A stretch of DNA of 40,214 bases, from positions 1 through 40,214 of the IMG/VR virus record IMGVR_UViG_3300030376_006444. One strand, given 5' to 3'. Below the pieces are notes generated by a model. It was not told the DNA's origin and did not search any database. It was given only the letters and a program-made list of their open reading frames with translations. The position numbers and the translations under genes are program-made. The stretch's first letter is position 1; every line of letters begins with the position of its first letter. Source of the stretch: a virus. Lineage: Duplodnaviria > Caudoviricetes. This document shows positions 12,893-34,417 of the stretch, in pieces.

Positions 12893-13864
12893 ATGGATGA
12901 CATAACAAGACTATTAGGCTCAATTATAAGCGGTGGCTTGGATGGATATCAACAAAATCAAAGATTAGACAAAACAATTCAAGCACAAGAAGATATAGCC
13001 TTATTAAAAGACTCTTTAAGCGTAAAAAACACACAACAATTAAATGAGAATAATAGAGAAAATGCATTATTGTCAGATTCCTTAGGGGTTAAAAACGCAA
13101 TGCTAGAAGATTCTTTAGATACCGAAAGAATGATGCGAGCAGATTCTTTAGCAAATGAAAGACATGAAGATACTCAAAGATTTCAAAAAGGAAATCAAGC
13201 ATTAGGTCTTATGACTGCTTTGGGTCCAGCAATGACAGATACAAAAAACCAAGAGTTAAGCAATCAAATAGCTAAGGGTGATTTTCGATATGAAAATATT
13301 CGTACTAAAGTACGAGAATTAGAAGATGCAAAAAGAGATGCTAGACAATGGACTCCTGATTTAAACAATTTAAACAGACGAACATTGCAGTTTAGAACTG
13401 AAAAATCTTTTCCATTTAGTGAAACAGATATGCTAAATGATTATACAGAAGTAAGAGACGATTTAGAATTGACGGTTTTGGAAGCTTTGAAACTGCCACC
13501 CAATGATATGAAAAGAGCAGGAGTCTTAAAATTTCTTAATAAGATGGTAAAAAGAGCTGGGCATACAGATTTCTTAGACGGAGATTGGGGTATATTTGGA
13601 GGCGAGGACCCAGATGGGGCACAAGCACAAGCAATTAAAGACGAATTAGAAACGTGGCAAACATTATTAAAGGATAAAAAAAGTAGCAATTCACTTTTAG
13701 ACGATATGTATAACATTTCTCCAGAAGATAGAAAGTTTTATCAAGAATGGAGAGGGCAAAGAGGTGCACTTTCTGGTAAAAAAATAGCAAACGTCGATGC
13801 TCAACAAGCTGAAATGATGAGTGTTTTAAAAACTTTAGTTGAACAATCTAATCCTAGTAAATGA
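12893..13864 (+). CDS. Putative internal virion protein
   Basis: N-terminal LLGSIISGGLDGY, internal xDSL repeats, helical; coupled (ATGA) to the giant gene. Confidence 0.5.
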   Translation: MDDITRLLGSIISGGLDGYQQNQRLDKTIQAQEDIALLKDSLSVKNTQQLNENNRENALLSDSLGVKNAMLEDSLDTERMMRADSLANERHEDTQRFQKGNQALGLMTALGPAMTDTKNQELSNQIAKGDFRYENIRTKVRELEDAKRDARQWTPDLNNLNRRTLQFRTEKSFPFSETDMLNDYTEVRDDLELTVLEALKLPPNDMKRAGVLKFLNKMVKRAGHTDFLDGDWGIFGGEDPDGAQAQAIKDELETWQTLLKDKKSSNSLLDDMYNISPEDRKFYQEWRGQRGALSGKKIANVDAQQAEMMSVLKTLVEQSNPSK

Positions 13865-16800
13865 ACCCATTTCAGACTAGGGAAAAACTAAAAAGATATC
13901 GCTTTAGACCTGAAAACTTCACTCAAGAAGAAGCAAGGGAATTAGAGCGATTTTCAAAGCTATACGGCTTTGTTCAAGAAAACCAACCACTAGAAGAAAC
14001 TTCAAGCAATAAACAAAGCAATATGCTTTCCCAGTTTAGTTCTGGGTTTACAGAGGGCTTACTTGGTCCTATTGCTATGGGTGGCTGGGCTGAAGACCCT
14101 CAAGATGAATTCCAATCTATCGCCCATAGTGCAGGGCATTTATTAGGGTTTGCATTGCCTCTGGCTGGTAGTCTTGTATCGTTTGGTGGAACTGGAATAG
14201 CAAGACTAGGGTTGATGGGTAGCGGTAGAATAGCAAAGGGTATTCAAGCTACAGGTAAAACAATAGGTGGCTTTGGTCAGGCTATGAAAAAAGGTAAGTC
14301 TGTACCTTTATTTGTAGGTGATAAAGCTGTAGATGCTACAAAAAAGATTTTAGCTAACGCTGGGTTTGAAGCTGGCAAGTACCTTGAGGCTGGTGCCAAG
14401 ATTGGGTTTAAAGCAAAAATGACTGATGTTGCATTTCAAGCACAGCATTTATCTGTAGCAAGTGCTGTAAGTGGAATGTGGAATGGCGAAGACGATGAAG
14501 TAGATAATTTAATATTTGGTGCTGTAGCTGGAGGGTTTTTTGGAGGCTTAGGAAACTTTGTGCGTGTTGGTAACATGATACAACACCCTAATAAGGTAGT
14601 ACGAGAAGCTGGGAAACGTAATCTTTGGGAATCGTCAAAACAATTATCAGATACTTTATATAATTATAGAGGTCAAATTCTTAGAGGTGCATTAGGTGCT
14701 GGTTTTCAAGGTGGAATGGCTACTATGCAAGGTGCACCAACTGCTACGCAACTATATGAATATGCATTAGGGGCATTTTTTGGTGCTGGTGCTCATGGAA
14801 TTAGGGAAAAGAAAGCATCTGAGTTTTTTAACAGTTATGAAAAAAGAAATGAAGAAGGTGCTTTACAGAAAGATTTTGCTGAGCGAAGGAATATGCTTGA
14901 GTCAGACGAGTTTAAAGCACTCCCTTTAGACTCTCAGCAATTAGTAAGAGAAAAATACACAAATTATATTGGAGATTTTTGGGATAGGTTCAAAGGAGAA
15001 GCCCTTCAAACAGATGATTCCTTACCTAGTGTTAAACTAGCAAGGGAAATACTAAAGCCCTACAACGAAGCATTAGAAAGAAAAGCACAAGAAGTCAGTA
15101 AGAAGACCGAAGACTTAGAGCCGTTTGAGATTGCCCAAGTTCAAGCTGAACTAATGGAGGTAGTACCTCAGCAATACGCAAGAGATTTAAACCTAAGAGT
15201 AATATCTGAAGGGTTATTAAAAAAGATACGCAACCCTAAGGAAAAATTAGAAGATACACAGCAAGAAATAGTAGATAAACTTACTCCTGAAGAACTTTCT
15301 CAAGTCAAAGAAGGCTATATAGAGCCATTAGAGAAAAAGATTGTTGAGTATTTTGAAAATATACCTCAAGAAAAAATAGAAACAACTGCTCAGGACATAC
15401 TGCGAGCAGAAGAGAATTTAATATCAGACCAACCTGAACTTGTAGTTGAGCCAGTTATTAGGCGGTTTCTTAATCAACTACAAAAAGAAACAGACATCTA
15501 CGAACCTAACGATGTATTAGAACACGCAGTAAAGACTTATAATGAATTACTGCCAAAGTCAGAAAGTGGTAAACGAGACACAAGATTTATCCCCGTAAAG
15601 GGAATGGTAAAAGAATACATAATGCTTCTTCAGGATAAGTTTCCTGGCATCAGAGTCACACCAGAAATGAAAAACAGCCTTACTCAAATGTACACTAGAC
15701 TATCGCAAGGCGTTATAAGACCAGTTATTAGTTACGACAAAACTACTCAGAAAAGAAAAACAATATGGGGATTTAATGTATTAAAGAGAAAAGTATCAGG
15801 TAGCGAGCCACGTTCAGCAGATGAAAAAATGTATGAAAATTTATGGGGAGATAAAGTTACAGTACGAGAATTCTCTGAATTAGTAGACAAAAAAGGCAAT
15901 ACCTACATAACATTAAAGCCTTACGACAAGGTGTGGAATGACAACTTAAAAGAATGGGTCCCTGCAATGCGTAGCAATGACTGGTTAAACATAACTAAGG
16001 GACTAGATAAAAAAGACCAGTATTTAAAAATACCTAAAAAAGATGGCGGTACTGAGCGTATATACAAGTATCACCCAAAAACAAATAGCACAGAATTAAA
16101 CACTATTGTAAAAGAAGTAGTAACGAAGTCAAAAAGTAAAGCAATAACAGAAGATTTACTTAAAAAATACATTGAAAAAGACTATAAAGTTTGGCTTGAA
16201 ACAATGGGGTTTGATTTAAAGCTGGAAAAAGACCTCATTGAAAATCAAGGGTTACGCAATTTATATAATAAAGCTTTTAAGTCTAATTACTTATACGAAA
16301 AAAACTGGAATTTTAAAAACGCAATTGCAAGAGTAAAACGTGAGGCACTACTTGCATCTAAGTCATTTTACGAGCAAGACAGAAAGTTTTTTAAAGACCT
16401 TACTAACGATACTGGCAAAATAAACATTATAGCTATAGAAGCTGAAGCCAATCTACTGGGAAAGCTTAGCAGTACTGGAAAAAGAATAGGGCAATGGCTA
16501 AATGTAGAAGGTAAAAAGCCTGAAACATTCTGGACTGTAGATAAGAATGGAAAACTAATGGAACAAGCATGGGAAAGTAAGATTGATGGTTGGTTAGTAA
16601 TGCATTCTGATTTATATAAAAGATTTATGGAAGCTAACGGATTTGATGGCGTTCAAATGTCTCATATGAAGCCTGCAGTAGCTGTTACAATGCCTGATGG
16701 AAGTCTGTTTTTAATAAAAGGTGGAGTACATCCAGGAAACAAGGCTTATAACGATGCAATGCCTAGTCCTAACTCTATGATAGTCGTGACTTCTGCTATC

Positions 16801-19800
16801 AAATCTATGCCAGAAGGTGCAAAGGTATATAAAGGACAAGCTAAAAAGAATGGTAAATACGAAATAAAAGACTACGACAAACCTTCCTTAGAAATGAATG
16901 TTGAAGACTTTAGAATAAGTTTTGGCGTATATGGAGACAAGCACTCAGCAGAACCCACTACAATTAAAAAACAAATGCATTCATTTTTTGATAGCCTAAC
17001 TATGAGTAGAGATGGTTATAGAGAATTTATGGACGCAATTCATTTTGATGTAATTAATGGCTCAAAGCAAGCCAATGAGTATATGCAAACCTTAAAAGAA
17101 AACCCTGATGCATTGCCACCAAAGGGGTTCAAGGTTACAGAATTAAGTGATAAAGATTTTATTACAGTTATAAACAACCCTAGTCACAAGCTCCACAAAG
17201 AATTAAACCTAGAAATCTTTAAGAAAATCAAAAGGATGGAAAAGGCAGAAGAATTTGAAGGTGCTGTGTATGAAGAACTAAAAGAGTATGCTAATAATTT
17301 TGAACGATGGTACCGAGCTACTGGTTATAATCCTGTATCTGCAATAATAAACAATAGTTTATATGAAAAGTCTGTGCATATATATCGTATGAATAAATTT
17401 ACTAATCCAGAATGGAAAAACTCTGGAAGCGGATGGGTAGCTGGGGTAGACCCAGTAATGGAGGCAGTAACTGGAGGTATTAAAAAGAATGCAACCTATG
17501 AGTTTTTTGAAGATGGAAAGTTAAAGAAAAGAAAAGTGGGGCATTTTAAAGTAGGTATAAGCCATAAAGACATGAAGGTTAAATGGCTTGGTGAAGGTGA
17601 ACAGATAAAACTAATCGAAGCTTGGGAGCAGTTTAAAAAAGAAAAGAATCCACACGTCAAAGCAAGAATGAGAAACAAACTCATGTTTGCTGTAATGAGG
17701 GTCCCAGCTAATGCAATATCAGGGACTAGGGCATTAATATTTGATGGATTTGTAAAAAATGACGTTGATTTATCTGATTGGGGCGTTTATATGAGAGGCA
17801 GAGACCACTTTTACATAGATGGAGCTGACGTTGATGGCGATAAAGTGTTCTTTTATCAAGGATTACCTCAGAAATACCTTAATGATTTAGTCAAAAACGA
17901 TAGTTTTTTGGAAAGGGCAAAGCAAGGTAAGAGTGTTTTCTTTGAAAATAAAGCTGAAAAAATGGATAAGTTGTTTAAAAGCGAAGTTTCTAAAGCAGAT
18001 TTAGACTACGTTAACAACAACCCATTGGCTCAATGGTCTCCTGGTGCATTACGTAAAACAGGTATAAGTGCATACACAGGAAAAAAAGGATTGGGATTAG
18101 TAGTAAATGCTAAATCGTTTTTAAATAATGTGTTAGCTGATGTGATAACCAATAAGGGTGGTAAAATAAGATTAGGGGTTTACACAACAAGTAAAGAAAC
18201 TGGTAAAAAAATACTTATAGGTGACTTAATTGGTCAAACTGACATGGCACAATTAAAATCTGAAAACGGTTATTACGTAGTAGGTACAGAGGCACATAGC
18301 AGAACAGCAGATAGTGCAAATTATTACAATATGGCAACTCCGCAAGAGATGGTAGACATTGTTACTCAAAGTGCTTTTAGGAGTTTAAAGTTTCACCCGA
18401 TTGAAGAAGGAAAAATTAGAGATGGAAGACTTAGTGATTTAAAAAACACATTAGAATATGCTCATTTAAGTGAATTGAATAACAAGTTGTATGGGTATGA
18501 TTTTTCAAACGATAGGGCATTTACTATAAGTGAAATACAAAATGCTGTAAAGCCATTTAAAGGCGAAGTAAAAACTATGAGTTCTATCGTTGATATTGCC
18601 CACAAAGTGGCACAAAACGAATTGAACATTGACCCACTCAGGCATTTTAACTACCAAGCATTTAGAGAAGCTATAAGAACTTTAAGCAATGAATTATTGC
18701 GAGACAAAGACGTACTAAAATACATTACTAGAAAGAACCTGAGGGTAATGCCATTGTACTACCACATAGATTATCAGGCAGTGTATAAAGCGATGTTAAA
18801 ACACCCAGAGTTCACTACGAAAAATGGACTAACCTTACGAGAAGTTCCAGAAAAAGGTGCTACTAAAAAAGATAAAGAACCATATAGGGAGCTACTATGG
18901 GAAGCGTTAGAACCGCCAAATAAAGAAGGGATTTCTCCATTAGAAGAAAGACTAGGAGATATCGGTAAAGGCGTACAAAAAACATTTAATAATTTATTTT
19001 CTAACCAAAGAATGGAGATAGGTAAAGCTATATCCAGATATGATGCTAAAGTTGAAAAAGAATATAAGATAAATGACTCCTACGATATATGGAGTGCCTT
19101 ACAACTCAACATAAAAGGTAAGGCATTAGATGATGCATTAAAAAACGCTGGTCACATTTCAGAGAAAGGTCAAATACCTTATGAGCGTATTAATGAAATT
19201 GCTAACAGAATAGTAAATGGTGAGCAAATAACTGGCAATAATATCGAAATGTTGGAAACTCAAAAATGGTCAAAACAGATACAAAAAGCAGTAGACGACA
19301 TACAAGCTGGCAAGCAACCAAAGACCGCTTCTGAGAGCAAATTTTTAATATTAAGAGACATTATAGCAAGACAAGCTGAAGCTGTAAAGCTCAAATTTAA
19401 TCATGCGTTTAAAAATGAAAATCAAAGAGTATTCGAGAACGAGCAAGAAGCCAATAAATTTATTAGAGAAAACGTAGTTGAGATAAGCAACATAGCAAAA
19501 GAATTAAAGATTAAACCTGAAGTAGCAGTTGATTATTATTACAATTACCTACTAAGCAGTTTACGTCCACAGCCAGTTCGATTAGAGGGAATTATTAGAA
19601 ACCTTAATGGTAGAATAGCAACTGCGGAAAAGAAAGGTCAAGCAGATAAAGTAGAAATACTAAAAAGGGAAAAAGAACGGGCAAGAGCTCAATACGAAAA
19701 TACCAGCACACCTCAATTTATATGGTCAGTGGATGCGATACCTGACCGAGTAAAATCACAATTTATGAAAGGGTATGCTGATACTTTCGATTTACTCAAT

Positions 19801-22800
19801 ACTGTTACTACTGATAAAATATCAGGAGAACTTACAGGATATTTAGCAAAATCCAAAAAAGACACTAAGCTTGGAGAGATTGAAAGCAGTATAGATGCTG
19901 AGGTAATTGCTGAGGTAGAAATTGATAGATTATTTAAACCAGATAAGCTAGGTGGTGTAGAAATTGCAAAAGATGCAAAAGGAAAAGCTGATGACGTGCC
20001 TAGTGATATACCACAAGTATTACGAGGTATTACCCAGAGTTTAAAAACATTACCCGATGGAGCTATTTTAAGATTTGAAGACCTATATACTTATATGAAA
20101 TCAGTACAAGGCGATGGTCCAACAAGTATTAAGATGGCAACTTGGGAAGACATAAGGTCATTTAATCGATTTTTAAAGGACATAGTTAACTCTACGAATC
20201 CAACTGGTAAAGTAAAAAAGATATATGACTTCCTTTTTCCAGATACAGTAGGTAAAAAACAAGCTGGGCATGACCTTGATTTGTTATTTAAAATGAAAAC
20301 ACCTATACGTAATGCCAAAGATATGGGACTAGCTACTATAAAAGTGCCATTATCCTCTATGTCATTTATACAAAAAGTTGGTGGACAAATGAGAGAACTT
20401 GAAGATTCTATTAAAAACAGTATGGTAGAATCCTTATTTAATGGCATTACTGTGAAATCTGAATTGGAAGCAATACCAAATGGTATTCAAACGTTTACTG
20501 ATTTATTTATGTTTGCTCAAAAGAAAATGAACTATGAACGTGCTGTAAAGCCTCAAGATGTTGAGTTTTATGGAAACGAATGGGCATCATCCTTAAAACT
20601 ATGGGACAGTAAATACAAAGGTAAAAAATTCAAGTTTACTAGAGCTGGTAAAGTAGTTGAAAAAACCTCTGAAGAAATAATTAGAGACATTCAAGAACAA
20701 CAAGGAAAGTTTTTACAAGGATTTTATGAAAGCTATTTAGGAGCTGGTGTTATAGATAGGTCTGGTGAATGGAAGCGTATTGACTGGAAGCGAGTTGATG
20801 AAAATGCAGAATGGGCTAAAAACGGATTGGTAATACATGACTTTATACGTTACGATAAAAATGGACGATTTGATTTAGAAAACTTTCAGAAAAAAGTAAT
20901 GGACCACGTAGAAACATTTGGCGTTAATGCATTACATAAGATGTTAGGGAATCGAAATAATCCTTTAGGTACTGAGCTATTAAACAGGGTACAGCACGAA
21001 ATAGGCTTAGAAGAGCATATACTAAGTAAGAAAATAAAGCCTAATTCAGAAGAGTCTAGAAATGTCAGACTAGAATGGAGGAAAGCTAACGAATTTTTTG
21101 GAATTGGAAGAATAGGTACGGAAGGAACAGAAGGGTTTTCTACAGAATACTTCCCTCAAATGAAACATGATACAAAAAAATTAAAACCTTGGGTGCAAGA
21201 ACAGCAGTTAAAGCTTAAAGAAAAATTAGAAAACTACGTTAATGACTTAACTCATGCTGGTAAAACAGTAATGGAAGACTCTTCTTATAAAATACCTAGA
21301 CGATATAGGTTTAAAGAAATTGAATTAGAAGCTTTAAAAGGCAAAATGTCTGATAAGCAACTAATAGACATATGGGGCGTATCTAATGTTACTATTAAAC
21401 CACATTTGATAAGCCTCAAGCTTGCAAGCCAAAATGCTGATTATCAATTGTACTTAGGGCAAAGAGTAGAAAGTGCAATGGGTCAATCAGACTATCTAGT
21501 AAACTTTTTAAACGCTGAATTCCGTAAAGGAAAAGAGCAATGGCAAGATATTAACGCTGAGTTTAGACCAGGAACTGGTAGACAAAGAGGCGATACTCAT
21601 GTACCGTATTTTAGTTACGGCTTTGAAGTTTTAGAAGCATACACTAATCAATGGGTAAGCTCCTTATTTAAAAACTTAAACGCATTAACTTTTCGTAAAG
21701 TCATAAATAATTACGAGCAAAACAATGTCTTTGCTAAAGAAAACCCTGAAATGGGAGAAATGTGGTCTAAGGAAATGAGAAGATATGCTAGTAGCTTAAT
21801 GGGGAAACCAAATGCATTACCAACAAAGTATACTGGGTTAAGTATTGTAGAAAAAGCAAAGCTTAAGCAGAGAATAAAACAAGCACCTGATGGTCCTCAA
21901 AAAGAATTGGACAAACGAAAATTAGAACGTGATGATAAACTTAAAAAACTATATGGAACTAAAGTAACCACATGGAATCCATTACAAAATATTGAATACA
22001 GAATGTCTGACCAAAATCTGGTTGAATACCTTGATGCCAAATCACAGCAATTAAACAAATGGGCGATTCCTGGCATTAGTAAAAAATTTCACGGTACACC
22101 AGAAGCACCTAAGCTATTTGGAATGGATTTGCCTACTTCCGAAAAAGCAAGACACCAAGTTTTATATCAAATCCTTAATAATATAGGTGCTTACGAATCA
22201 AAACTTTCATTGATATCACTACTAGCTCATCCAAAAACATATTTAGGTAACGTAGTAGGTGGTAGCTCTAATACCATAACCAATATGGGTTTCAGGCAAT
22301 TTAAAAGGGCGAGAGATGTAAAGTGGCTAGTAACTAACGTGTTTGCAGGTGCCAAGCTAAAAGACGGTACTCCAATTACCGATAGGAATACCATACATAG
22401 ATGGGTAGCAGAAATTGGTGCGTTAGAATCGTTCTATATCAATGAAGCTATGATGGATAAGCGATTAGACGCTAAAAAATTGAAACCATTTTTTAAAGAA
22501 GTGTTTTCTAAAAGAGATGTTACAGATGCTACAGTAATGGACTTAGCTAAAAAATACCAAGTAACAGATTCTATATTATCTGCTGGTGGCTGGTTTATGA
22601 GAGCCTCAGAAAGAACACTTCGTACCGATGCGTTTATAGCACATTATCTAAATGCAAGAGAAGCTTTGGGACAAATAATACCTAATATGCCCTTTGACCA
22701 TCCCTACCTTACAGGAATGGCATTAAAAGGCGTTGAAGCTACGCAGTTTTTATACCATAACGTTAATAGACCAGCAGTTTCTCGCTCTACAATGGGAAAA

Positions 22801-23334
22801 GTGTTTACAAGATTCCAACCTTTTATGTGGAATTCAATACGTTTTAGAAGAGATATTTATAAACAAGCTAAGATGTATGGGTTTAATGATAAAAAATCAA
22901 TGGATAGGCTAAAAAGATTGACCATTATGGACTTATCAACCTTTGCATTAGCGAATGTATTTGTAGGTTCTCTTTTTGACAGCATACTACCACCTCCTTT
23001 ATCTTACGTACAAGATACTGCCGATTGGTTATTCGGAGATAAAGTTGAAAGGGAGAGAGCGTTTTTCAGTGCCTATCCACATCCTATATTAGCACCATTG
23101 CAGGTAGCCACAGCTCCAATACATAGATATTGGATGCCACTAATGACTGCCCTAATTAATGGAGAATGGGAACGATGGGCAAATTACTATACGTGGTCAA
23201 TGATGCCATTTGGAAGACTGGCAAGAAGTACTATTATGACATTAGAAAGACCAGAAATGACTGCTGAATTCATGTTTGGAATACCAGTACATAAATTAGG
23301 AAATATGATAAGGAAAGATAACGATGGGTCCTAA
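13861..23334 (+). CDS. Giant virion protein containing a putative single-subunit two-barrel RNA polymerase
   Basis: 3157 aa with ordered motifs D909-G, K953-G, S978xxK981, R1280xP and G-A-D1323-V-D1325-G-D1327. Gly/Ala-rich hydrophobic N-terminus and helical ejection-protein-like C-terminus. Confidence 0.8.
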   Translation: MNPFQTREKLKRYRFRPENFTQEEARELERFSKLYGFVQENQPLEETSSNKQSNMLSQFSSGFTEGLLGPIAMGGWAEDPQDEFQSIAHSAGHLLGFALPLAGSLVSFGGTGIARLGLMGSGRIAKGIQATGKTIGGFGQAMKKGKSVPLFVGDKAVDATKKILANAGFEAGKYLEAGAKIGFKAKMTDVAFQAQHLSVASAVSGMWNGEDDEVDNLIFGAVAGGFFGGLGNFVRVGNMIQHPNKVVREAGKRNLWESSKQLSDTLYNYRGQILRGALGAGFQGGMATMQGAPTATQLYEYALGAFFGAGAHGIREKKASEFFNSYEKRNEEGALQKDFAERRNMLESDEFKALPLDSQQLVREKYTNYIGDFWDRFKGEALQTDDSLPSVKLAREILKPYNEALERKAQEVSKKTEDLEPFEIAQVQAELMEVVPQQYARDLNLRVISEGLLKKIRNPKEKLEDTQQEIVDKLTPEELSQVKEGYIEPLEKKIVEYFENIPQEKIETTAQDILRAEENLISDQPELVVEPVIRRFLNQLQKETDIYEPNDVLEHAVKTYNELLPKSESGKRDTRFIPVKGMVKEYIMLLQDKFPGIRVTPEMKNSLTQMYTRLSQGVIRPVISYDKTTQKRKTIWGFNVLKRKVSGSEPRSADEKMYENLWGDKVTVREFSELVDKKGNTYITLKPYDKVWNDNLKEWVPAMRSNDWLNITKGLDKKDQYLKIPKKDGGTERIYKYHPKTNSTELNTIVKEVVTKSKSKAITEDLLKKYIEKDYKVWLETMGFDLKLEKDLIENQGLRNLYNKAFKSNYLYEKNWNFKNAIARVKREALLASKSFYEQDRKFFKDLTNDTGKINIIAIEAEANLLGKLSSTGKRIGQWLNVEGKKPETFWTVDKNGKLMEQAWESKIDGWLVMHSDLYKRFMEANGFDGVQMSHMKPAVAVTMPDGSLFLIKGGVHPGNKAYNDAMPSPNSMIVVTSAIKSMPEGAKVYKGQAKKNGKYEIKDYDKPSLEMNVEDFRISFGVYGDKHSAEPTTIKKQMHSFFDSLTMSRDGYREFMDAIHFDVINGSKQANEYMQTLKENPDALPPKGFKVTELSDKDFITVINNPSHKLHKELNLEIFKKIKRMEKAEEFEGAVYEELKEYANNFERWYRATGYNPVSAIINNSLYEKSVHIYRMNKFTNPEWKNSGSGWVAGVDPVMEAVTGGIKKNATYEFFEDGKLKKRKVGHFKVGISHKDMKVKWLGEGEQIKLIEAWEQFKKEKNPHVKARMRNKLMFAVMRVPANAISGTRALIFDGFVKNDVDLSDWGVYMRGRDHFYIDGADVDGDKVFFYQGLPQKYLNDLVKNDSFLERAKQGKSVFFENKAEKMDKLFKSEVSKADLDYVNNNPLAQWSPGALRKTGISAYTGKKGLGLVVNAKSFLNNVLADVITNKGGKIRLGVYTTSKETGKKILIGDLIGQTDMAQLKSENGYYVVGTEAHSRTADSANYYNMATPQEMVDIVTQSAFRSLKFHPIEEGKIRDGRLSDLKNTLEYAHLSELNNKLYGYDFSNDRAFTISEIQNAVKPFKGEVKTMSSIVDIAHKVAQNELNIDPLRHFNYQAFREAIRTLSNELLRDKDVLKYITRKNLRVMPLYYHIDYQAVYKAMLKHPEFTTKNGLTLREVPEKGATKKDKEPYRELLWEALEPPNKEGISPLEERLGDIGKGVQKTFNNLFSNQRMEIGKAISRYDAKVEKEYKINDSYDIWSALQLNIKGKALDDALKNAGHISEKGQIPYERINEIANRIVNGEQITGNNIEMLETQKWSKQIQKAVDDIQAGKQPKTASESKFLILRDIIARQAEAVKLKFNHAFKNENQRVFENEQEANKFIRENVVEISNIAKELKIKPEVAVDYYYNYLLSSLRPQPVRLEGIIRNLNGRIATAEKKGQADKVEILKREKERARAQYENTSTPQFIWSVDAIPDRVKSQFMKGYADTFDLLNTVTTDKISGELTGYLAKSKKDTKLGEIESSIDAEVIAEVEIDRLFKPDKLGGVEIAKDAKGKADDVPSDIPQVLRGITQSLKTLPDGAILRFEDLYTYMKSVQGDGPTSIKMATWEDIRSFNRFLKDIVNSTNPTGKVKKIYDFLFPDTVGKKQAGHDLDLLFKMKTPIRNAKDMGLATIKVPLSSMSFIQKVGGQMRELEDSIKNSMVESLFNGITVKSELEAIPNGIQTFTDLFMFAQKKMNYERAVKPQDVEFYGNEWASSLKLWDSKYKGKKFKFTRAGKVVEKTSEEIIRDIQEQQGKFLQGFYESYLGAGVIDRSGEWKRIDWKRVDENAEWAKNGLVIHDFIRYDKNGRFDLENFQKKVMDHVETFGVNALHKMLGNRNNPLGTELLNRVQHEIGLEEHILSKKIKPNSEESRNVRLEWRKANEFFGIGRIGTEGTEGFSTEYFPQMKHDTKKLKPWVQEQQLKLKEKLENYVNDLTHAGKTVMEDSSYKIPRRYRFKEIELEALKGKMSDKQLIDIWGVSNVTIKPHLISLKLASQNADYQLYLGQRVESAMGQSDYLVNFLNAEFRKGKEQWQDINAEFRPGTGRQRGDTHVPYFSYGFEVLEAYTNQWVSSLFKNLNALTFRKVINNYEQNNVFAKENPEMGEMWSKEMRRYASSLMGKPNALPTKYTGLSIVEKAKLKQRIKQAPDGPQKELDKRKLERDDKLKKLYGTKVTTWNPLQNIEYRMSDQNLVEYLDAKSQQLNKWAIPGISKKFHGTPEAPKLFGMDLPTSEKARHQVLYQILNNIGAYESKLSLISLLAHPKTYLGNVVGGSSNTITNMGFRQFKRARDVKWLVTNVFAGAKLKDGTPITDRNTIHRWVAEIGALESFYINEAMMDKRLDAKKLKPFFKEVFSKRDVTDATVMDLAKKYQVTDSILSAGGWFMRASERTLRTDAFIAHYLNAREALGQIIPNMPFDHPYLTGMALKGVEATQFLYHNVNRPAVSRSTMGKVFTRFQPFMWNSIRFRRDIYKQAKMYGFNDKKSMDRLKRLTIMDLSTFALANVFVGSLFDSILPPPLSYVQDTADWLFGDKVERERAFFSAYPHPILAPLQVATAPIHRYWMPLMTALINGEWERWANYYTWSMMPFGRLARSTIMTLERPEMTAEFMFGIPVHKLGNMIRKDNDGS

Positions 23335-24952
23335 AGAAGCAAAATATTACAGAGACTTACTTGAAACAATAGGAATAAAATTTAAAAGTAAAGGAACAAG
23401 GCTTAAAGGTCCTCAGTATTATGGGATAGAAGATACTGAAATGACATCGCCTTTAAGTAATAAGGAATTTTCACGGAGAAATTTTGCATTAACTGAAGAA
23501 GGTAAAATTATACCAGCAGGTAGTCCTGCGTTAATTCCCACAGAAGTATACCCTACGCCTAAAGGTGCTATAACAAGTATTGCCACAGATGAATTAGCTA
23601 TGCGAAATCCTTGGCTTGGATTAATTGGTGGAGCAATTATGAGCAGAGGAAAGAAGTTCTCAGATAATACACCAGATACTAGAATGTATCCAAGGTACCC
23701 TGATAACTACGGTAAAGGATACGGTTATCAAGACACTCCTTATTTATATCCAACAAAAAGAACTCCTGATTTTGAGCCAGTAATACGGCACGATAATAGA
23801 TTTCAAATTCCAATGGCTCCTCCTAGGCAAAAAGTTGATTTAAACCCACAGCAACGAATAACTATGAATGCGTTAGAAAGGGCTGAAGGTAGAACAAGGG
23901 CTTTATGGGCTAAAGATAAACAGGTAATTTTAGATAATAATCAAAACCCAGTAGTTGTTCCACAAAGCGAACTAATGGAAAGACTCGATAGTCAGCTTAA
24001 AAATCCATTATTTGGAAACTATCCTTGGTTTCAAGAGGGTACAGTTGACTTAGGTGGTGGCAATACAATGTATAATTTTAATCAAGTTCCTGGGTTTGGA
24101 GCATTTAGAAACGTTCAAGACAAAAAAGCAAAAAACACACTGGCTTACGCATCAATTCCTGGCGAAATGCATGATTTAGACTTAGCTACTCCAAGTGGTT
24201 TTAAAGGAGAACATTATGATGACGCTATGCAAATTAAATATGACAATGTTGGACACGCTATGGAAGGTATTGAAAAAGCGTATAGAAATAATCCTGACTC
24301 ATATTATATAATAGGGCAAACTGGCGGAGGACTAAGAGTATGGGACGTAGGGAACACCACAGCAAGGACGCATGACCCTAAATTCCTTCAAAATAGAAGA
24401 GATGCTATGCAAGAAATGGGAAATGATGAGTTTTATACTAATATGACTATGGGTAACAATTCAGCTAGAGTTATGCAATTAGCTGATAATCTTGGAATAT
24501 CTTATGATAACGCAACGCAGGAATTATTAAGATTAAGAAGAGAAGGAATTATAGATGATAGGTTAGCAAAAGAATGGTTTGCAGGAGAAGGAGCTCATTC
24601 TGATGCTAGACTTGATGAAAAAATGGTACGATTAATGGGTTATAAAGACCCAGATTTCGACTCTGGTCCTCCAATGGGGTACCAAGAAATGTTTCGTTTA
24701 GGAAATAAAGAGAACATAAGTGCAGGAAAATACTTGTCTTATGCAACACATAGAGACCTAATGAATAGACTCAGGAGAGCTAGAGGGTTAATAGACCCAG
24801 TAAGAGACGATATGGGACTAGGTGTTTTAGATAGCAAATATTTAGATTATACAATGAAAGCAATGAGCCCTGATTGGAAAGAGCAACTTAGGAAAAACTG
24901 GAGATTAGGCTTACTTGCCCCAGCAGTATTGCCACAAAGCGAAGAAAAATGA
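23324..24952 (+). CDS. 542-aa protein with possible AEP-like catalytic domain
   Basis: Motifs HDLD, QTGGGLRVW, GNDEFY and DARLDEK; Pro-rich low-complexity N-terminal half. The CDS is solid, the function is speculative. Confidence 0.45.
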   Translation: MGPKEAKYYRDLLETIGIKFKSKGTRLKGPQYYGIEDTEMTSPLSNKEFSRRNFALTEEGKIIPAGSPALIPTEVYPTPKGAITSIATDELAMRNPWLGLIGGAIMSRGKKFSDNTPDTRMYPRYPDNYGKGYGYQDTPYLYPTKRTPDFEPVIRHDNRFQIPMAPPRQKVDLNPQQRITMNALERAEGRTRALWAKDKQVILDNNQNPVVVPQSELMERLDSQLKNPLFGNYPWFQEGTVDLGGGNTMYNFNQVPGFGAFRNVQDKKAKNTLAYASIPGEMHDLDLATPSGFKGEHYDDAMQIKYDNVGHAMEGIEKAYRNNPDSYYIIGQTGGGLRVWDVGNTTARTHDPKFLQNRRDAMQEMGNDEFYTNMTMGNNSARVMQLADNLGISYDNATQELLRLRREGIIDDRLAKEWFAGEGAHSDARLDEKMVRLMGYKDPDFDSGPPMGYQEMFRLGNKENISAGKYLSYATHRDLMNRLRRARGLIDPVRDDMGLGVLDSKYLDYTMKAMSPDWKEQLRKNWRLGLLAPAVLPQSEEK

Positions 24953-25050: not shown

Positions 25051-25126
25051 TTGACGACAAACGACTCTTTTTACCCCCACTTGATATATACAGATAGCCA
25101 TATTACAGCCATAAAGGGGGCAAATT

Positions 25127-27692: not shown

Positions 27693-29493
27693 GAAAGCCA
27701 CCTTCTCCTGAGACCTGCTTAAATCTGAAATAGTCTTTTTGAAATTCAAACATTAACTGCATATATCCTTCATCTCTTGCCTTTTCTGTAGTAAGGCTTC
27801 GTCTTCTTTCGTGCATTTCACCATTAATTACCAAGACCTTGTCAGCTTTTTGAGAAACATTACTAGTACCTTTTAAGCTACCCATACGAACTACTCCAGA
27901 ACTTTGGGCTTCTTTATTTACGTGATGTACAACAATCACAATACATTCTTGTTTCTGTGCAACAGCTTTAAGAGAGTTAATAATCTGGTTCATTTTAGCG
28001 ATTTCATCATGGACACCTTTTACCCATATCATATCGCTTGTATCTATCACAACAACTTTTGGCTTACTTCGTGCAATACCTTCAATTAACCTTGATAACT
28101 CAGGTGGCTCAGTCGTCAATTGAACGTGCTTAAAAGCTTCCATGTGTTCTCTTCTTGTAACAGGGTCTGCGTATACTTTATTTGCCTCTTCTTTTGTAAG
28201 ATTATGGCACATTTGCACAAACCTTCTTCCCGTCATATGCTGATTGTTTTCTAAAGATAGAAACATTACAGGCAAATGAGGTATTTTTGTTACAAGATTC
28301 ATTACCCACGTAGACTTACCCATACCAGTATTACCTGAAACAATTACAAGTTCACCAGGCATTACCCAGAAATCACGATTCATATCGTAAATATCTGCAA
28401 AGTTAAACGAACTTTTAGTAAAGTCTTTTTCAAGGAACTCAGCGTATTCATCAGCTATGTCATCCATGCTTTTAAGTTCTAATGAATAATCTTTATGCTT
28501 GAAGTAAATGCATTCAGGTTTACAGTGCTTAGCCATAATGAAGTCATTACAACCATACTCGTATCCAGTATCAAATACTTTACTGGCACATTCTTCAGCT
28601 TCTGCACCTAACCCTGACCAAGTGCTTAACGTATGTTTCACCACTTCTAAAGGCATTCCAGTACGTCTCATCCAAGAACCAACTCTCATCATTGTATCGT
28701 TTCGTTCACCTTCAACTGGAGGATTAGCAATTACATTTTGCATACAGGTCACTACTGAGTTAGGGTCCATTCTAAATTGACTTCTAACAGTCTCTTTAGA
28801 GGCAACACTTCTTGAGGGATATTCAATTAACGATTGCATATAAGGCTCTTTATTTGACCACTTATTACGCAATGCATTAACTACGTCAATATCATCTTGC
28901 TCAAATCCTTCTTTACTAGCTGACATAATAGAATCCATATCGCATTCATTAAAGCTGTCTACAGTAAATTGAATTTTGAAGTTTCCTTTCTTAGCGTTAT
29001 AACTAAATGGAGCACGAATTAAACGTGCCCCATCATAGATATTGTCGCAACTAGGAAATACTGCCTGTAAAGTTTCTTTTACAACTTGAGGTAAGGTAGT
29101 AGAAGGGGTAAACCCAAAGATATTTGGCATTTCAATATGGAAACCAGTTCCTGAATACCAAATAAGTATGTCATCTTTGTTAATGCCCAAGTCTTGTATC
29201 ATTTCAAAGTTCACTAACCAATGAACAGAGTCATATAAATCAGTGTTACTTAGTTCTTTTTTATCAAAGTCTAAAATGATACTGTTAATGTAGTATGCTC
29301 CAGAAAATCCTTGAATAGTACCTACGCTATCAATGTGTTGCTTTAACTGTTCGTCAAAACAATACCAACTATGATAGGTTTCATTCTTTTGTTCTGGACC
29401 AAATACGTAACTGCTAATATTGTTCAAGTTAGCAACTTGATGTCTATTAGAAACGTGACCTGTGGCAATTTCCACCATGCGGATATCGCTCAT
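27685..29493 (-). CDS. AEP primase-polymerase + PriCT + DnaB-like (SF4) helicase fusion
   Basis: AEP motifs IILDFD, YSGTGFHI and IYDGARLIRAP; GERND (PriCT-like); Cys cluster; Walker A GNTGMGKS, FLSLEN, VVIDT and ADKV. ATGA overlap at 29490-29493. Confidence 0.9.
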   Translation of the reverse strand: MSDIRMVEIATGHVSNRHQVANLNNISSYVFGPEQKNETYHSWYCFDEQLKQHIDSVGTIQGFSGAYYINSIILDFDKKELSNTDLYDSVHWLVNFEMIQDLGINKDDILIWYSGTGFHIEMPNIFGFTPSTTLPQVVKETLQAVFPSCDNIYDGARLIRAPFSYNAKKGNFKIQFTVDSFNECDMDSIMSASKEGFEQDDIDVVNALRNKWSNKEPYMQSLIEYPSRSVASKETVRSQFRMDPNSVVTCMQNVIANPPVEGERNDTMMRVGSWMRRTGMPLEVVKHTLSTWSGLGAEAEECASKVFDTGYEYGCNDFIMAKHCKPECIYFKHKDYSLELKSMDDIADEYAEFLEKDFTKSSFNFADIYDMNRDFWVMPGELVIVSGNTGMGKSTWVMNLVTKIPHLPVMFLSLENNQHMTGRRFVQMCHNLTKEEANKVYADPVTRREHMEAFKHVQLTTEPPELSRLIEGIARSKPKVVVIDTSDMIWVKGVHDEIAKMNQIINSLKAVAQKQECIVIVVHHVNKEAQSSGVVRMGSLKGTSNVSQKADKVLVINGEMHERRRSLTTEKARDEGYMQLMFEFQKDYFRFKQVSGEGGFHG

Positions 29494-29738
29494 AATACTG
29501 GCAGGCATCCTAAACTATTTGTTATGAACAATGCACCACCATCATTTCCTTCGTCATCTTTTGATGGATAACACCAAACACCATTTTCTAATTTGAACAT
29601 AACAGGACGACTCCACCAATACATCTCATCTTTTTCATCTTGACTCATGTAAGATACTTCAACAATCTTCTGATTCAACAAAACATCACTAGCAATGGCA
29701 TTCCATTTCTTTTCAAGTTTATCATAATCAATCTGCAT
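29490..29738 (-). CDS. Hypothetical phage protein
   Basis: C-terminal PSKDDEGNDGGALF; probable start MQIDY. Confidence 0.6.
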   Translation of the reverse strand: MQIDYDKLEKKWNAIASDVLLNQKIVEVSYMSQDEKDEMYWWSRPVMFKLENGVWCYPSKDDEGNDGGALFITNSLGCLPVL

Positions 29739-30042
29739 CAGATACCTTATAGTACTTTTGAGTTCCACGATTAGTCATAACTTCGTCATATGTAAGACCA
29801 CTACGATAAAGAGCTGAATTTTCTTTGTCGTTGCGATAGTCTTCTCTCATTTTTCTCCACAACCTAGATATAGTATCTGGCGTGACAGGCTTGTTAAACA
29901 TATTACGGATATATTGAACGGCATTGAGCTGTATTTCATGTGCACCAATAAGTGCATCTTTTCTGCTTTTAAACCATTCAAGGAGCATAGCTTCATTGCT
30001 ACGCCCCTTGATACCCATAACTTTTGAAAAATCGTAAGCCAT
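29728..30042 (-). CDS. Hypothetical protein, possible winged HTH
   Basis: 104 aa, TPDTISRLWRKMRE helix followed by a beta-hairpin-like end; coupled to the SSB gene. Confidence 0.5.
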   Translation of the reverse strand: MAYDFSKVMGIKGRSNEAMLLEWFKSRKDALIGAHEIQLNAVQYIRNMFNKPVTPDTISRLWRKMREDYRNDKENSALYRSGLTYDEVMTNRGTQKYYKVSDAD

Positions 30043-30623
30043 TAGAACGGCAATGAAGCCTCTGCTTTCTCTTTTTCAGCACCTTCATTCCAAAGTCCAT
30101 TAAGAGCTTTGTTAGAAGATTGATGTTTATAACCTTTAGGCGGTGACATATCATTCCACTTATCAAGTAAGAAATCTTTACCACCTTCTTTATCTCCAAA
30201 GTAGAACCATGTTTCTCTAGAGTATTTTCCATTAGAATCGTACTGTAAGACATAGACTTGTTCACCTATTAGTCTGCCTAATGTTACTGGTGCAATAGTT
30301 CCATCTTCGTTTAACTCTATTTCATTTGCTTTCATTCCTGTAGCAGTTTCAATGAAATGACATACTTTCCAACTTCCACCTCTAGTGTCATTATTACTGC
30401 TTCCCCAGTCTAACATGGTTTTACCATCTTTATGATGATTGCCACCAAGGTAAAACTTCTTTGGATAGCCTTTAACAGGCTCAGCTTCTACGAAAATATT
30501 GCAATCATTGTATTTTGATTCGCTATTTTCAGCTTTAGTGATAGTACATAAGTCAACATAAACTCCTTTAGGGAATTTACTTTGAGCACCAATACTGCCA
30601 CTTTGGCTATTAGTAAATTGCAT
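30042..30623 (-). CDS. Putative single-stranded DNA-binding protein
   Basis: Beta-rich core, C-terminal ...EASLPF tail, directly after the annealing protein. Confidence 0.6.
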   Translation of the reverse strand: MQFTNSQSGSIGAQSKFPKGVYVDLCTITKAENSESKYNDCNIFVEAEPVKGYPKKFYLGGNHHKDGKTMLDWGSSNNDTRGGSWKVCHFIETATGMKANEIELNEDGTIAPVTLGRLIGEQVYVLQYDSNGKYSRETWFYFGDKEGGKDFLLDKWNDMSPPKGYKHQSSNKALNGLWNEGAEKEKAEASLPF

Positions 30624-31478
30624 TTACTTCTCCTTTGCTTTATTTTCTACTAAATGATTTCTATCTAACTCTAGTTTATTTTTACTCAAAAAGGTATCAA
30701 CGTCGAAATTTGTTCTTTCTTTACTTGATACCCATTCAACAGCTTTCTTCTTTTTATCATCTGATAGACTAGAACTTTCAATAGACTTAATTACTTTATT
30801 TCTCCTTGGTTCGGTAATCTTACGATTGTTTGCAATTCCAGCTTTTACGTCTGCAATTAAAATCGTTGCGACTTCTTCTGTAACACCTTCCCAACCAGCG
30901 TCTTTCATCTTCTTTAGCCTTTCTTTATCTTCTTCGTTAGCTAGAGGGTCTCGACTTAATCTGTCTAATAAGACATTTTGGTCTACAGTTACTCCACCAG
31001 GCGTTGGTTTTTTACCATTTAACAAGGTTTGCTGAGGACGTTGAAGCTCTTTTATGTCTTCATTCATCCATAACTCAATACCAAATCCAGTTAACGTTGA
31101 GACACCTTTAGCAAGTGCCCTACGATATGTGTTTTCCATTTCTGCGGAATTAGGATTCAGTACTGCTTGATTTCTATTATCACGAACAGCAAGATATTCA
31201 TCATGTACAAACGTATCGCCATCTTCTGTTTCGTATGTTATTTTACAATGGACAATTACAGAGCCATCTGGTTGCATAATGCCAGCAAACGGCTTGTCTC
31301 CATATGTGTATATAATCCATTCGTGTCTTGCAAGTGGGAACAACTCTTTTAAGTTATCCCAGCATACACTCCATGAGAGGTAGGAAGCATCAAAGCTTCC
31401 TCCCCCAATGTTTTCTACGAAAGGTTTATAGTCTGTATCTCTTAAACTGTAAGCGTACAGATTTCTTTCTTCGTTCAA
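30624..31478 (-). CDS. Sak/Rad52-like single-strand annealing protein (DUF1071-like)
   Basis: SYLSWS, ENTYRRALAKG and GFGIELW motifs; TTG start after AGGAG. Confidence 0.8.
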   Translation of the reverse strand: MNEERNLYAYSLRDTDYKPFVENIGGGSFDASYLSWSVCWDNLKELFPLARHEWIIYTYGDKPFAGIMQPDGSVIVHCKITYETEDGDTFVHDEYLAVRDNRNQAVLNPNSAEMENTYRRALAKGVSTLTGFGIELWMNEDIKELQRPQQTLLNGKKPTPGGVTVDQNVLLDRLSRDPLANEEDKERLKKMKDAGWEGVTEEVATILIADVKAGIANNRKITEPRRNKVIKSIESSSLSDDKKKKAVEWVSSKERTNFDVDTFLSKNKLELDRNHLVENKAKEK

Positions 31479-31487
31479 ATCAACTCC

Positions 31488-32486
31488 TTAATTGTAAGTG
31501 ATTATTCCACTATTACTACTATGATTTGCCATTGCTTCGGCAATCCTATATGCATTCATCTTATCACGATGAGAAGCACCAAAATGAGTACCTTTTACCC
31601 AGTCTTTATGGTTCTTCACGTGGTCGTGATATTCAGCAATTGCATTATATGCATCCCACAATGTGCGACCTTTATTTCCTTTCCCGTTATAAAACAGGTC
31701 AGTAATCGTATCATAAACTGGTTTTGCTCTATTACGAACAAAGATACCAAGTTCAGGCACAGATTCTTTATGCCTATTCTTTAACCAAGGCATTACTGCT
31801 TCGATGTACAGCTTTAATGACTCTGGGGTCATTTCAACATCAACAAAACGATTCATGTGGTCCATAGCTAACGAAACGTTTCCTTTATGCTCATTTATTT
31901 TGTCAGTTAGCTCTTTTATTCGTGAATTAATAGAAGAGGTATGCCTTAATTTGTACTCATAGCCACCTTTCTTATTTAATGCCCACGTTAATGTATTATT
32001 ACATACAACACGAATAGACGTATCACGAAAACAACTACCTGATGACCCATCATGTGAGGTGTAAAGCAACACAAAACCTTGTATTGCATCATCGCCTACT
32101 TGAAAAGTGTCAGGAGTCTTTGCAAGAATCCATACTTTCTTTCCTTGGTCAATTACACCAGCAGTTTCAAACTTATATCCATAGTCTTGTAATACCTCAA
32201 ATGGTGCAAAAGCATCACGGTTTTGCAAGACTTCGTATTTGTTACCAACATTACCTATTGGCTTATTAGTGTCAGAGCGAACTGTTACAAAATGACCAGT
32301 GTCCTTCAATATATAATCACCTTCGTTATTATACATTTGATAAACAGTAGGTACTTTCTTTACTTCAAAGTTCATACCAGATAACTCTAACGCTTCTTCT
32401 ATCGAAGGAACTTCTTGTAATGGCGTTCCTAAGCCATGCCAGGGAGTCTCACCCAAGTAGAACATATTTTCAATCAGATGACCCAT
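31488..32486 (-). CDS. DUF932 family phage/plasmid protein
   Basis: GETPWHGLG, YEVLQN, FETAG, SHDGS, IRVVCNNT and GRTLWDAYNA motifs. Confidence 0.9.
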   Translation of the reverse strand: MGHLIENMFYLGETPWHGLGTPLQEVPSIEEALELSGMNFEVKKVPTVYQMYNNEGDYILKDTGHFVTVRSDTNKPIGNVGNKYEVLQNRDAFAPFEVLQDYGYKFETAGVIDQGKKVWILAKTPDTFQVGDDAIQGFVLLYTSHDGSSGSCFRDTSIRVVCNNTLTWALNKKGGYEYKLRHTSSINSRIKELTDKINEHKGNVSLAMDHMNRFVDVEMTPESLKLYIEAVMPWLKNRHKESVPELGIFVRNRAKPVYDTITDLFYNGKGNKGRTLWDAYNAIAEYHDHVKNHKDWVKGTHFGASHRDKMNAYRIAEAMANHSSNSGIITYN

Positions 32487-33260: not shown

Positions 33261-33581
33261 TTAAGAAGCATATAAACGATTTCTAGCATAATTCATTAGT
33301 TCCATCTTTTCACGAATTTTACTGTCTAACATTCTATACACCTTTGTAGAGCTTGAGTGGGCAATCTTTGTGCCAAGTTTGACACCTTTATCATTTCGCA
33401 ATTGTTCAATATACTTAACAAGCTCATATTTACTTAAAGCTCGTATTTTAGTTACTTCATTTGCGTAATAATCTCCCTTAATCAAAGCCCTTTGTTTGTC
33501 TATATTGCTACGTTTAAGGGAAAGGGAGAACTGAATTAAATCATTCTTCGTTTCAGTAGTTAATAAGGTTTCTAATCTCAT
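33261..33581 (-). CDS. Hypothetical basic helical protein
   Basis: 106 aa, AGGA RBS, first gene of the leftward replication operon. Confidence 0.65.
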   Translation of the reverse strand: MRLETLLTTETKNDLIQFSLSLKRSNIDKQRALIKGDYYANEVTKIRALSKYELVKYIEQLRNDKGVKLGTKIAHSSSTKVYRMLDSKIREKMELMNYARNRLYAS

Positions 33582-33595: not shown

Positions 33596-33636
33596 AAGTT
33601 AGGTTAGGTTAACATATTTATCAAGTATAAATATGT
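33596..33636 (-). promoter_or_regulatory. Sigma70-like leftward promoter overlapped by a palindromic operator
   Basis: Minus strand TTGATA-17 nt-TAACTT. The inverted repeat ACATATTTAT-N5-ATAAATATGT (33612-33636) covers the -35 element. Confidence 0.6.
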
Positions 33637-33709
33637 GGATAAATCTTGTTTATTTAGTTAACTTTGTACTAGAAGAAGTACATTATTAACAATTATAGGG
33701 GCAAATCAA

Positions 33710-34417
33710 ATGGGCAAAATTGATATGGTCAAATGGTTGCGAACCACCGACATATCTTACAGTGAGATAAGTCGTACAACAGGAATATCTCGTAACACCT
33801 TGTATTCATGGATAGCTAGTAACGCTGAAATTCGTGACAGTAATTATAATAAAATTGCTAAGCATTACGAGTCTTATTTTACACAAAAGGAGAAGATGGC
33901 TATGGACACAAGCCATGTGGGATTACTAGAAGACAAAGTACGAAGTTTAGACTTAGAAAATACAATGCTAAGAAAACAGCTAAACGACAAACAAGCAGAA
34001 AGTCACGAATTTGAAAACGTTAGATATGACTACATGGCTAACATCAAATTGAGCTTAAAAGGCTTAAAGGTCTACAGAACTGTTTTAGATGTAAATAATA
34101 TTGAATTACAAATTGAAAAACTTGGATACAGCGAAGATGAGCTAATGGAATTATGGGAAATAAATCAAAAAGTTAATCTTTCAGATATAAAAATGAACAA
34201 AATCGTTCATAACGATACAATAGATGAAATGGAGAACAAAGCAAAGACGCTTCCATATATTTTTAACGCCCTAAAAGACATGATAGGAAAGCACTATATT
34301 CCTTTCCCTATTATATATATTCACAAAAATGGAACTCGTGTTCCTGCTATTTCTTACAATTATATCAAATGGCACAAAATGGAGGTAATTGCAAAGGTTA
34401 AGTTTTTAGTTGCATAA
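33710..34417 (+). CDS. HTH transcriptional regulator with coiled-coil linker and C-terminal PAS-like domain
   Basis: N-terminal SYSEISRTTGISRNTLYSW HTH; C-terminal N...LGYSEDELM...IVHND...YIHKNGTRVP PAS/PAC pattern; the only + strand gene in the leftward arm. Confidence 0.75.
   Translation: MGKIDMVKWLRTTDISYSEISRTTGISRNTLYSWIASNAEIRDSNYNKIAKHYESYFTQKEKMAMDTSHVGLLEDKVRSLDLENTMLRKQLNDKQAESHEFENVRYDYMANIKLSLKGLKVYRTVLDVNNIELQIEKLGYSEDELMELWEINQKVNLSDIKMNKIVHNDTIDEMENKAKTLPYIFNALKDMIGKHYIPFPIIYIHKNGTRVPAISYNYIKWHKMEVIAKVKFLVA

Follow-up and report, generated by a model that had tools for sequence, protein, structure and literature searches.

The stretch analysed here in full (hereafter the window) comprises the 40,214 nt of a linear IMG/VR record, IMGVR_UViG_3300030376_006444, which is 81% complete and belongs to a tailed phage of the Caudoviricetes. 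In this genome, the gene of a giant protein that is a candidate virion RNA polymerase (RNAP) lies next to a tyrosine integrase with a tRNA-type attachment (att) core, and the integrase shares its presence or absence among relatives with a helix-turn-helix (HTH) regulator encoded on the other side of the replication genes. The phage is marine and likely a podophage of ca. 49 kb with Marinimicrobia (SAR406) as likely host. The features on which the argument rests are the following:

13861..23334, plus strand: giant protein of 3,157 amino acids (aa), candidate virion (ejected) RNAP
15958..18660, plus strand: RNAP core (residues 700-1600) with MRVP at residues 1279-1282 and GADVDGD comprising D1323, D1325 and D1327
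25002-25050, plus strand: att core of 49 bp, the 3' half of tRNA-Val(GAC) from anticodon stem to discriminator
25127-26023, plus strand: tyrosine integrase, 298 aa (PF00589, E 1.3e-15)
33596..33624, minus strand: sigma70-like promoter at the head of the replication operon (TTGATA-17-TAACTT), proposed from positional conservation
33710-34417, plus strand: divergent regulator, likely a lysogeny repressor, with N-terminal HTH, coiled coil and (as a lead) a PAS-like C-terminal part
34428..34456: hairpin terminator separating the distal arm from the HTH gene that converges on it, the top terminator match in our scan
34474..37751, minus strand: distal arm, in which the genes are small and variable
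37869..37961: conserved single-copy non-coding element where the arm and terS diverge

The giant protein and its junction with the integrase

In the giant protein, the RNAP core is preceded by a Gly-rich hydrophobic N-terminal region and followed by a C-terminal one that is helical and conserved. By sequence, it matched neither Pfam nor PHROG families and reached only chance-level matches in the PDB, and a tblastn search with the core returned nothing from 50,697 deposited phages. An AlphaFold (AF2) model of residues 700-1600 (predicted local distance difference test score, pLDDT, 87.5; predicted template-modelling score, pTM, 0.86) found its best Foldseek match in the virion RNAP (vRNAP) of phage phi14:2 (6VR4; E 9.2e-8, TM 0.42), followed by QDE-1 and RDR2. 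Using VIA-align, the core aligned to QDE-1 over 530 residues (Z 16.9; root-mean-square deviation, rmsd, 5.0) and to 6VR4 over 653 residues (Z 11.1, rmsd 4.7), the longest structural alignment that we obtained, and the model has the single-chain core fold common to both enzymes. It also carries the DxDxD metal-binding motif of two-barrel RNAPs together with their upstream conserved Arg-x-Pro: G[AM]DVDGD is kept in 56/56 homologs, and the MRVP before it is nearly invariant. Proteins of crAss-like phages were among the viral-library matches of the core, and the nearest named Atlas cluster (PF05183, score 0.81) is a lead only. The RNAP family appears to be broad, given that a profile search retrieved 242 clusters at E <=0.001. 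Judging from the model and the motif, the giant protein almost certainly carries a two-barrel RNAP core, which supports the candidate RNAP of the preliminary description of this sequence. The model of the C-terminal 808 residues is of middling quality (pLDDT 65.6) and, with no Foldseek match and a best Z of 7.2, uninformative either way.

In every record, the giant gene belongs to the late block, and hydrophobic stretches are present in the N-terminal part of its product. From its size, its position in the late block and its homology, we infer that the protein is packaged in the virion and ejected with the DNA. Some RNAP homologs contain an inserted cpYpsA (SLOG) domain at differing places (residues 1396-1529 of P0006, residues 829-974 of P0011), and one record of 88,986 bp (G031) joins two related phages with a giant RNAP gene each, the second of which lacks integrase and HTH regulator.

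The RNAP is encoded at 27 viral and 41 metagenome loci, two overlapping sets of which the latter stems from a scan of 42 of 64 parts. A recurring gene order, in which the giant gene is followed by an optional gene of the 542-aa type, att and integrase, a 101-aa gene, RusA and the primase-helicase, holds in independent records whose RNAP identity ranges from 79% to about 30%. The integrase family was matched in 15/27 records and in 9 of the 12 near-complete ones, and the two genes flanking att and integrase adjoin directly in relatives without them. Read depth agrees across the junction in two runs, one of them from a separate study (53.5 vs 54.3 and 21.5 vs 25-26). The junction near 25000 is thus not chimeric, and the chimeric assembly that the preliminary description had considered at 24950-25130 is contradicted by both gene order and depth. 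Its statement that the candidate RNAP lies less than 2 kb from an intact integrase with a tRNA-type att site was accurate: the integrase starts 1,793 bp past the end of the giant open reading frame (ORF), all catalytic motifs (R, K, HxxR, H and Y) are intact, and the core occupies 25002-25050.

Likely lysogeny module and predicted host

The att core is identical over 49/49 bp in 25 genomes, of which all 13 named ones are Marinimicrobia while the other 12 are titled just as bacteria. ARAGORN detected no complete tRNA within the window. It called a full tRNA-Val at 21 host sites, and the other four of the 25 are cut or masked. The core is identical in the relatives L010 and L013 despite diverged flanks, and among viral records it matched two others, both known relatives (five for the tRNA-Gly core). 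Other relatives have fragments of tRNA-Gly or tRNA-Pro at their att sites, and these match up to 100% in the same host genomes, as searched at 22 of the 25 host loci. Related integrases with 41-51% identity over long alignments are encoded in Marinimicrobia chromosomes, a search of the phylum matched related integrases in 13/401 genomes, and the Atlas neighbours of the HTH regulator belong to Fidelibacterota, which is the NCBI name for the Marinimicrobia phylum. Marinimicrobia are therefore the likely host on sequence grounds.

Several further observations concern the integration region. Four records (G024, G017, G025 and G031; e.g., L026:18796-18869) carry a complete, host-identical tRNA-Gly(GCC) rather than a 3' half, and G021 has a tandem pair of integrase genes at 10953-12714 (L023:18401-20162). 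At L047 and L037, a degenerate second tRNA 3' end just downstream of tRNA-Val resembles the scar of an earlier integration. We rejected an integrase of G004 (51%) as a sign of an integrated relative because it is a frameshifted island gene with no phage neighbours.

For comparison of gene content, 21 of the 27 viral records were taken whole and their proteins clustered with those of the window, while six fragments of 15-24 kb were left out. The twin record G007 does not span the region between integrase and HTH gene, and the informative records number 21. Integrase and HTH regulator are both present in 15 of them and both absent from six, with no discordant record and with the absences confirmed by six-frame profile searches, so that the temperate kit varies as a unit when RNAP relatives are scored as the preliminary description had suggested. 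The two genes are 8 kb apart and flank the conserved replication operon. If the second, distant phage of G031 is counted, the table reads 15/0/0/7 (Fisher p 5.9e-6). The trait is scattered over the RNAP tree with six changes, and all five independent pairs are concordant, for which the tree-corrected two-sided sign test gives p 0.0625 and is not significant at n=5. A tRNA 3' fragment adjoins the integrase in 10/15 records and is found in 0/6 records without integrase, and G022 retains a 29-aa integrase remnant, indicating integrase loss there. Of all the evidence, this co-variation speaks most strongly for the module acting as a lysogeny switch. Integrase, att core and HTH regulator likely form a working lysogeny module, and the phage probably lysogenizes. 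We propose that the relatives without repressor, which also lack integrase and att, are virulent derivatives that arose several times.

No S24 peptidase was matched in the HTH regulator. A clear PAS domain is present in 1/15 members of its family (E 1.9e-8) and its Atlas neighbours pair a CI-type HTH with PAS_3 (scores 0.81-0.91), so that a PAS-like sensor in the regulator of the window is best treated as a lead. Its alignment gave weak matches against the PDB, and no shared word that could be an operator was found in the switch region. The regulator family was matched in 15/401 Marinimicrobia genomes. Among eight of these loci that we followed, seven are stand-alone host genes (including L181:7696-8454, L183:9330-10076 and L186:237-701), copies that might cross-repress these phages. 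The eighth, L182 (G232:C38, 4,490 bp), is a fragment of a different phage-like element, with genes for a RusA-like protein, a related HTH regulator and an integrase of 516 aa as well as the 3' end of a tRNA.

Transcription units and the remainder of the genome

An induced prophage has no injected RNAP, and the preliminary description had therefore sought a second route into early transcription at the sigma70-like site of 33596-33624. The sequence TTGATA-17-TAACTT scores 8/12 and was not listed by a promoter scan, whose total in the region was at chance (56 vs 58.9). Across relatives, the 106-aa head gene of the operon is preceded in 21/21 records by a site of the pattern T[TG]G..W-17/18-TA...T that ends 10-18 nt ahead of the gene start, a count that is optimistic since the pattern was derived from the same sequences in which it was counted. 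Controls gave 0-2 sites for nine other genes and <=2 in 200 shuffles. The site is thus placed at the head of the replication operon as had been supposed, but it is kept in all six integrase-less records and would accordingly be the ordinary, default entry to replication rather than a route reserved for induction.

A different picture emerges for the distal arm, which the preliminary description had taken as a possible RNAP-dependent, infection-only unit. At the same spacing, a sigma70-like site precedes its first gene in 0/16 records, and in 2/16 one is found anywhere between the motif of the conserved element and the start, as scored in the 16 of 19 records where the start of that gene could be called (not so in the window, G012 and G024). 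The arm is in our view a candidate pre-early unit that would be read by the injected RNAP. Its segment 35678-37341 is long, poorly coding and variable, and a strain present in two runs is 481 bp shorter there and has lost a 120-aa ORF. A possible assignment of 35072-35458 as "RNA polymerase inhibitor" was rejected, as the PHROG match is weak (E 3.9e-4) and has no PDB support. In 13 records, both temperate and integrase-less, the last gene of the arm encodes a ParB-like protein of 520-566 aa (e.g., G024 43264-44958, L112:11764-13458) that is absent from the window.

The conserved element beyond the arm is defined by the motif TCAAC, 32-36 nt, GGGGG..TATAT..CATTCTA..AATTTT, which is present in all 19 records that span the site (the window and 18 others) and has no match in shuffles; its viral matches lie beside terS of the same phage family in 26/26 cases. 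In most relatives, it is adjoined by an inverted repeat of 50-220 nt that is free to vary in sequence and length. The 81-nt hairpin of the window is not above shuffles (z 0.63), while a longer stretch there reaches z -4.3 against base shuffles. A strand-specific RNA is not supported, because both strands fold about equally and with few G-U pairs. The element may serve for packaging, for RNAP entry or for both. Contig-only runs show neither genome ends nor expression, and the only RNA run (n=1) gave two short contigs.

The other genes of the window are as follows:

2-4690: tail-fibre gene with at least 8 GNVGIGTT-type repeats
7679..13864, plus strand: late genes preceding the giant ORF, with products of 1,251, 146, 190, 166 and 323 aa, order conserved
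23324..24952, plus strand: variable last late gene, 542 aa
26020..33581, minus strand: replication/recombination operon, including a conserved 101-aa ORF
27214-27522, minus strand: RusA-like nuclease
27685-29508, minus strand: primase-helicase
30042-30623, minus strand: 193-aa ORF
30624-31478, minus strand: Sak
31488-32486, minus strand: DUF932
33261-33581, minus strand: operon head gene, 106 aa
38600..40212, plus strand: terS-like gene and start of terL, truncated at the record end

The twin record G007 (99.9% identical over 24 kb) supplies the 9 kb absent from the window, comprising the remainder of terL, portal, capsid and other structural genes, which gives a genome size of ca. 49 kb, and relatives measure 46-51 kb. 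A complete relative, G024, encodes a P22-like portal (PF16510, E 7e-59) and an SU10-type major capsid protein (MCP). Together with a short-tail gene block and with neither tape measure nor sheath matched among the proteins scanned, this portal points to a podovirus. The late genes at 7679..13864 matched no Pfam or PHROG family and lie where tail and ejection proteins would be expected, and the 542-aa product was matched by none of Pfam, PHROG and PADLOC; PADLOC had no match for nine proteins searched. The gene kit described earlier was found again with HTH regulator, Sak, DUF932 and primase-helicase, except that the presumed single-strand DNA-binding protein (SSB) at 30042-30623 has no Pfam or PHROG match to confirm the label. 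A DNA polymerase had been noted as missing from the window, which is itself incomplete, yet PolA and PolB are also absent from 5/5 complete relatives by profiles that matched 10/14 and 5/14 control genomes. At about 39330-39340, the window lacks ca. 50 nt present in G007 and in run contigs, through an assembly slip or as a strain variant, and this fuses terS (252 aa) to the following 65-aa ORF into 299 aa. Most records have AT-rich tandem TACAGTA/TACTGT-like repeats before terS (38230-38330 in the window) that are possible origin iterons or terminase binding sites.

Early transcription, alternatives and known systems

Early transcription of this phage is likely split between an injected polymerase and the polymerase of the host. 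In the scheme that we propose, the giant protein would be packaged and ejected along with the DNA and then, in what is the weakest step, start transcription of the distal arm at the conserved element (37869-37961). Should packaging run rightwards from near terS, the arm would be the last part packaged and the first to enter. Host sigma70 RNAP is predicted to initiate the replication operon at 33624-33596. For lysogeny, the HTH protein would repress this same promoter, and integration, carried out by the integrase, would target tRNA-Val(GAC). Because the phage carries the 3' half of the tRNA, the tRNA would be restored upon insertion. Induction would amount to derepression of the same host promoter, allowing replication without the injected enzyme and making the arm specific to infection. 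The replication genes thus seem never to depend on the injected enzyme. We consider this chain as a whole, from ejected RNAP to derepression, somewhat more probable than its negation.

A number of observations weigh against this scheme, and several alternatives were compared with it. The first alternative, which we regard as unlikely, is that the phage is temperate but its injected RNAP reads through the arm into the replication operon as in phi14:2, with the sigma70-like site serving middle expression and induction. The vRNAP of phi14:2 covers the entire early class, arm and operon are co-directional here, and the hairpin at 34428, although the top scan match in the window and in this respect as described earlier, has a comparable perfect counterpart in just 7/21 records. 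Against our own scheme, the vRNAP transcripts of phi14:2 have no common upstream motif in the accessible text of 10.1101/2020.03.07.982082, and the conserved element may accordingly be a packaging site only. A sigma70-like site in every informative record, including six integrase-less ones with nothing to induce, speaks against read-through, as does the convergent HTH gene that divides arm and operon in temperate members.

Alternatively, integration might be rare or never occur, with integrase and att as an island-type passenger of a phage that is lytic or persists unintegrated, a reading that seems distinctly unlikely to us. It draws on the search for integrated copies, which had been expected at tRNA-Val and did not turn up. 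None of the 25 host att sites has phage genes beside it, each being unoccupied, none of 15 host integrase loci has family neighbours within about 1.5 kb, the RNAP profile matched 0/401 Marinimicrobia genomes (positive control 5/5), the primase-helicase matched 0/233 genomes of the order (a search without positive control), and no RNAP relative appeared among the at least 600 candidate stretches listed by a scan of genome collections. The genomes searched are fragmentary metagenome-assembled and single-amplified genomes, one per species, and unitigs cannot bridge the 49-bp core, which limits detection of attL and attR. All contigs with RNAP homologs are at most 53 kb long except the two-phage record, and G019, L090 and L096 have split or short integrases. 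Related integrases in host islands without phage genes, the varying att tRNA (Val, Gly or Pro), the ParB-like arm gene of 13 records and the lone HTH genes of host chromosomes would fit a passenger as well. Against a passenger stand an integrase and HTH gene that, 8 kb apart, are never discordant in 21 records, an att core that stays constant while its flanks diverge, and intact catalytic motifs.

It is also improbable, in our estimate, that the giant protein is a two-barrel enzyme but no injected early polymerase, acting instead outside the virion on late genes like YonO or as a DNA-entry motor or primer-maker. Its virion location is deduced from gene position and homology, not from particles, the best Z-scores are to QDE-1 and RDR2, and no solved ejection protein was matched by the C-terminal region, a comparison that is uninformative either way. 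YonO of the temperate phage SPbeta, a prophage-encoded two-barrel RNAP, is a precedent as far as the consulted part of PMC5467207 goes. The size of 3,157 aa, the hydrophobic N-terminal segments and the late-block location in all records argue for an ejected protein, as does the longest structural alignment being that to a virion RNAP, and a terminal position in the late block would ill suit a driver of late transcription. Finally, an assembly chimera of RNAP and integrase at the tRNA repeat near 25000 can practically be dismissed. Unitigs do end at the 49-bp core shared with hosts and other phages, but independent records down to about 30% RNAP identity keep the gene order, depth agrees on both sides in two runs, and the two flanking genes adjoin directly in relatives without integrase.

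Crassvirales have genomes near 100 kb and their own DNA polymerase, the vRNAP of N4 is a T7-like single-subunit enzyme in a group with larger genomes that also encode a DNA polymerase, and YonO is a non-virion late-gene enzyme of about 100 kDa. The phages described here differ from Crassvirales in size (46-51 kb) and in the lack of PolA and PolB from all five complete records. Their motif DVDGD also lacks the Phe of DFDxD, the wording used for Crassvirales in the available part of 10.1101/2020.03.07.982082, and their att cores match Marinimicrobia, which predicts a host outside Bacteroidota.

The closest known system is phi14:2, whose gp66 is a virion protein that serves to transcribe the early genes, the middle and late ones being left to host RNAP (10.1101/2020.03.07.982082, as far as accessible). 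Both giant proteins share the single-chain two-barrel fold, the DxDxD site, their size class and the location in the late block, and use of host RNAP for later genes is predicted for the phage of the window as well. However, identity is only about 10-12%, the motif is DVDGD rather than DFDID, the protein has 3,157 rather than 2,180 aa, and the smaller genome of 46-51 kb lacks PolA/PolB, has integrase, att and repressor, and belongs to a predicted Marinimicrobia rather than a Bacteroidota phage. The vRNAP of Thermus phage P23-45 transcribes only genes adjoining the genome end, and this two-barrel gp96 with its restriction to end-adjacent pre-early genes is what we propose for the arm; unlike the giant protein, it is fused to a tape measure, in a siphovirus where a second RNAP that is not part of the virion acts after it, and neither "temperate" nor "prophage" is mentioned in that paper (10.1101/2022.12.01.518664).

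Characterised virion-RNAP phages had been regarded as mostly larger and non-integrating. The combination of virion RNAP and lysogeny is not unprecedented, as indicated by accessible portions of reports on N4-like proviruses and on prophage-like relatives of Epsilon crAss-like phages. For Schitoviridae, a virion-RNAP lineage, 40 integrated N4-like proviruses and integrase-bearing genomes are described (PMC10654107). Epsilon crAss-like phages combine a two-barrel vRNAP with repressor and anti-repressors and have incomplete related prophages in Parabacteroides, but infect gut Bacteroidota, and in the portion consulted the authors found no integrase and reported no att site (PMC11054128). YonO is likewise a single-chain two-barrel RNAP of a temperate phage. 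Possible crAss-like prophages are mentioned once in what we could access of PMC7886860, and a report of Marinimicrobia viruses never mentions RNA polymerase in its accessible part (PMC4611503). We found no description of a phage family with this RNAP in open PubMed Central and bioRxiv text, the scope of our search excluding subscription papers and supplements. What is new here is the joint presence or absence of integrase and HTH regulator across relatives of such a phage.

Taken to its full extent, our reading would be that a widespread family of small Marinimicrobia phages combines true lysogeny with an injected crAss-type RNAP that starts at a structured DNA element and reads only the arm at the entry side, that a PAS-like sensor-repressor without RecA-cleavable domain lets a host metabolite decide between lifestyles, and that the family turned virulent at least five times through joint loss of repressor and integrase. 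We offer this version tentatively and think it less likely to hold in all its parts than to fail in some. If true, infection and induction would start from different gene sets of one genome. The role of an injected RNA polymerase, mixed up with the needs of DNA replication in crAss-like phages, would be separated from them in these phages, and this separation can be tested directly in a genome of 49 kb where replication has a host-type promoter and the arm on the polymerase side is small. These phages, attachment sites included, would give the abundant, uncultured Marinimicrobia a phage family, would extend crAss-type virion polymerases beyond hosts among the Bacteroidota, and may offer repeated natural switches from temperate to virulent lifestyle within one family for comparison.

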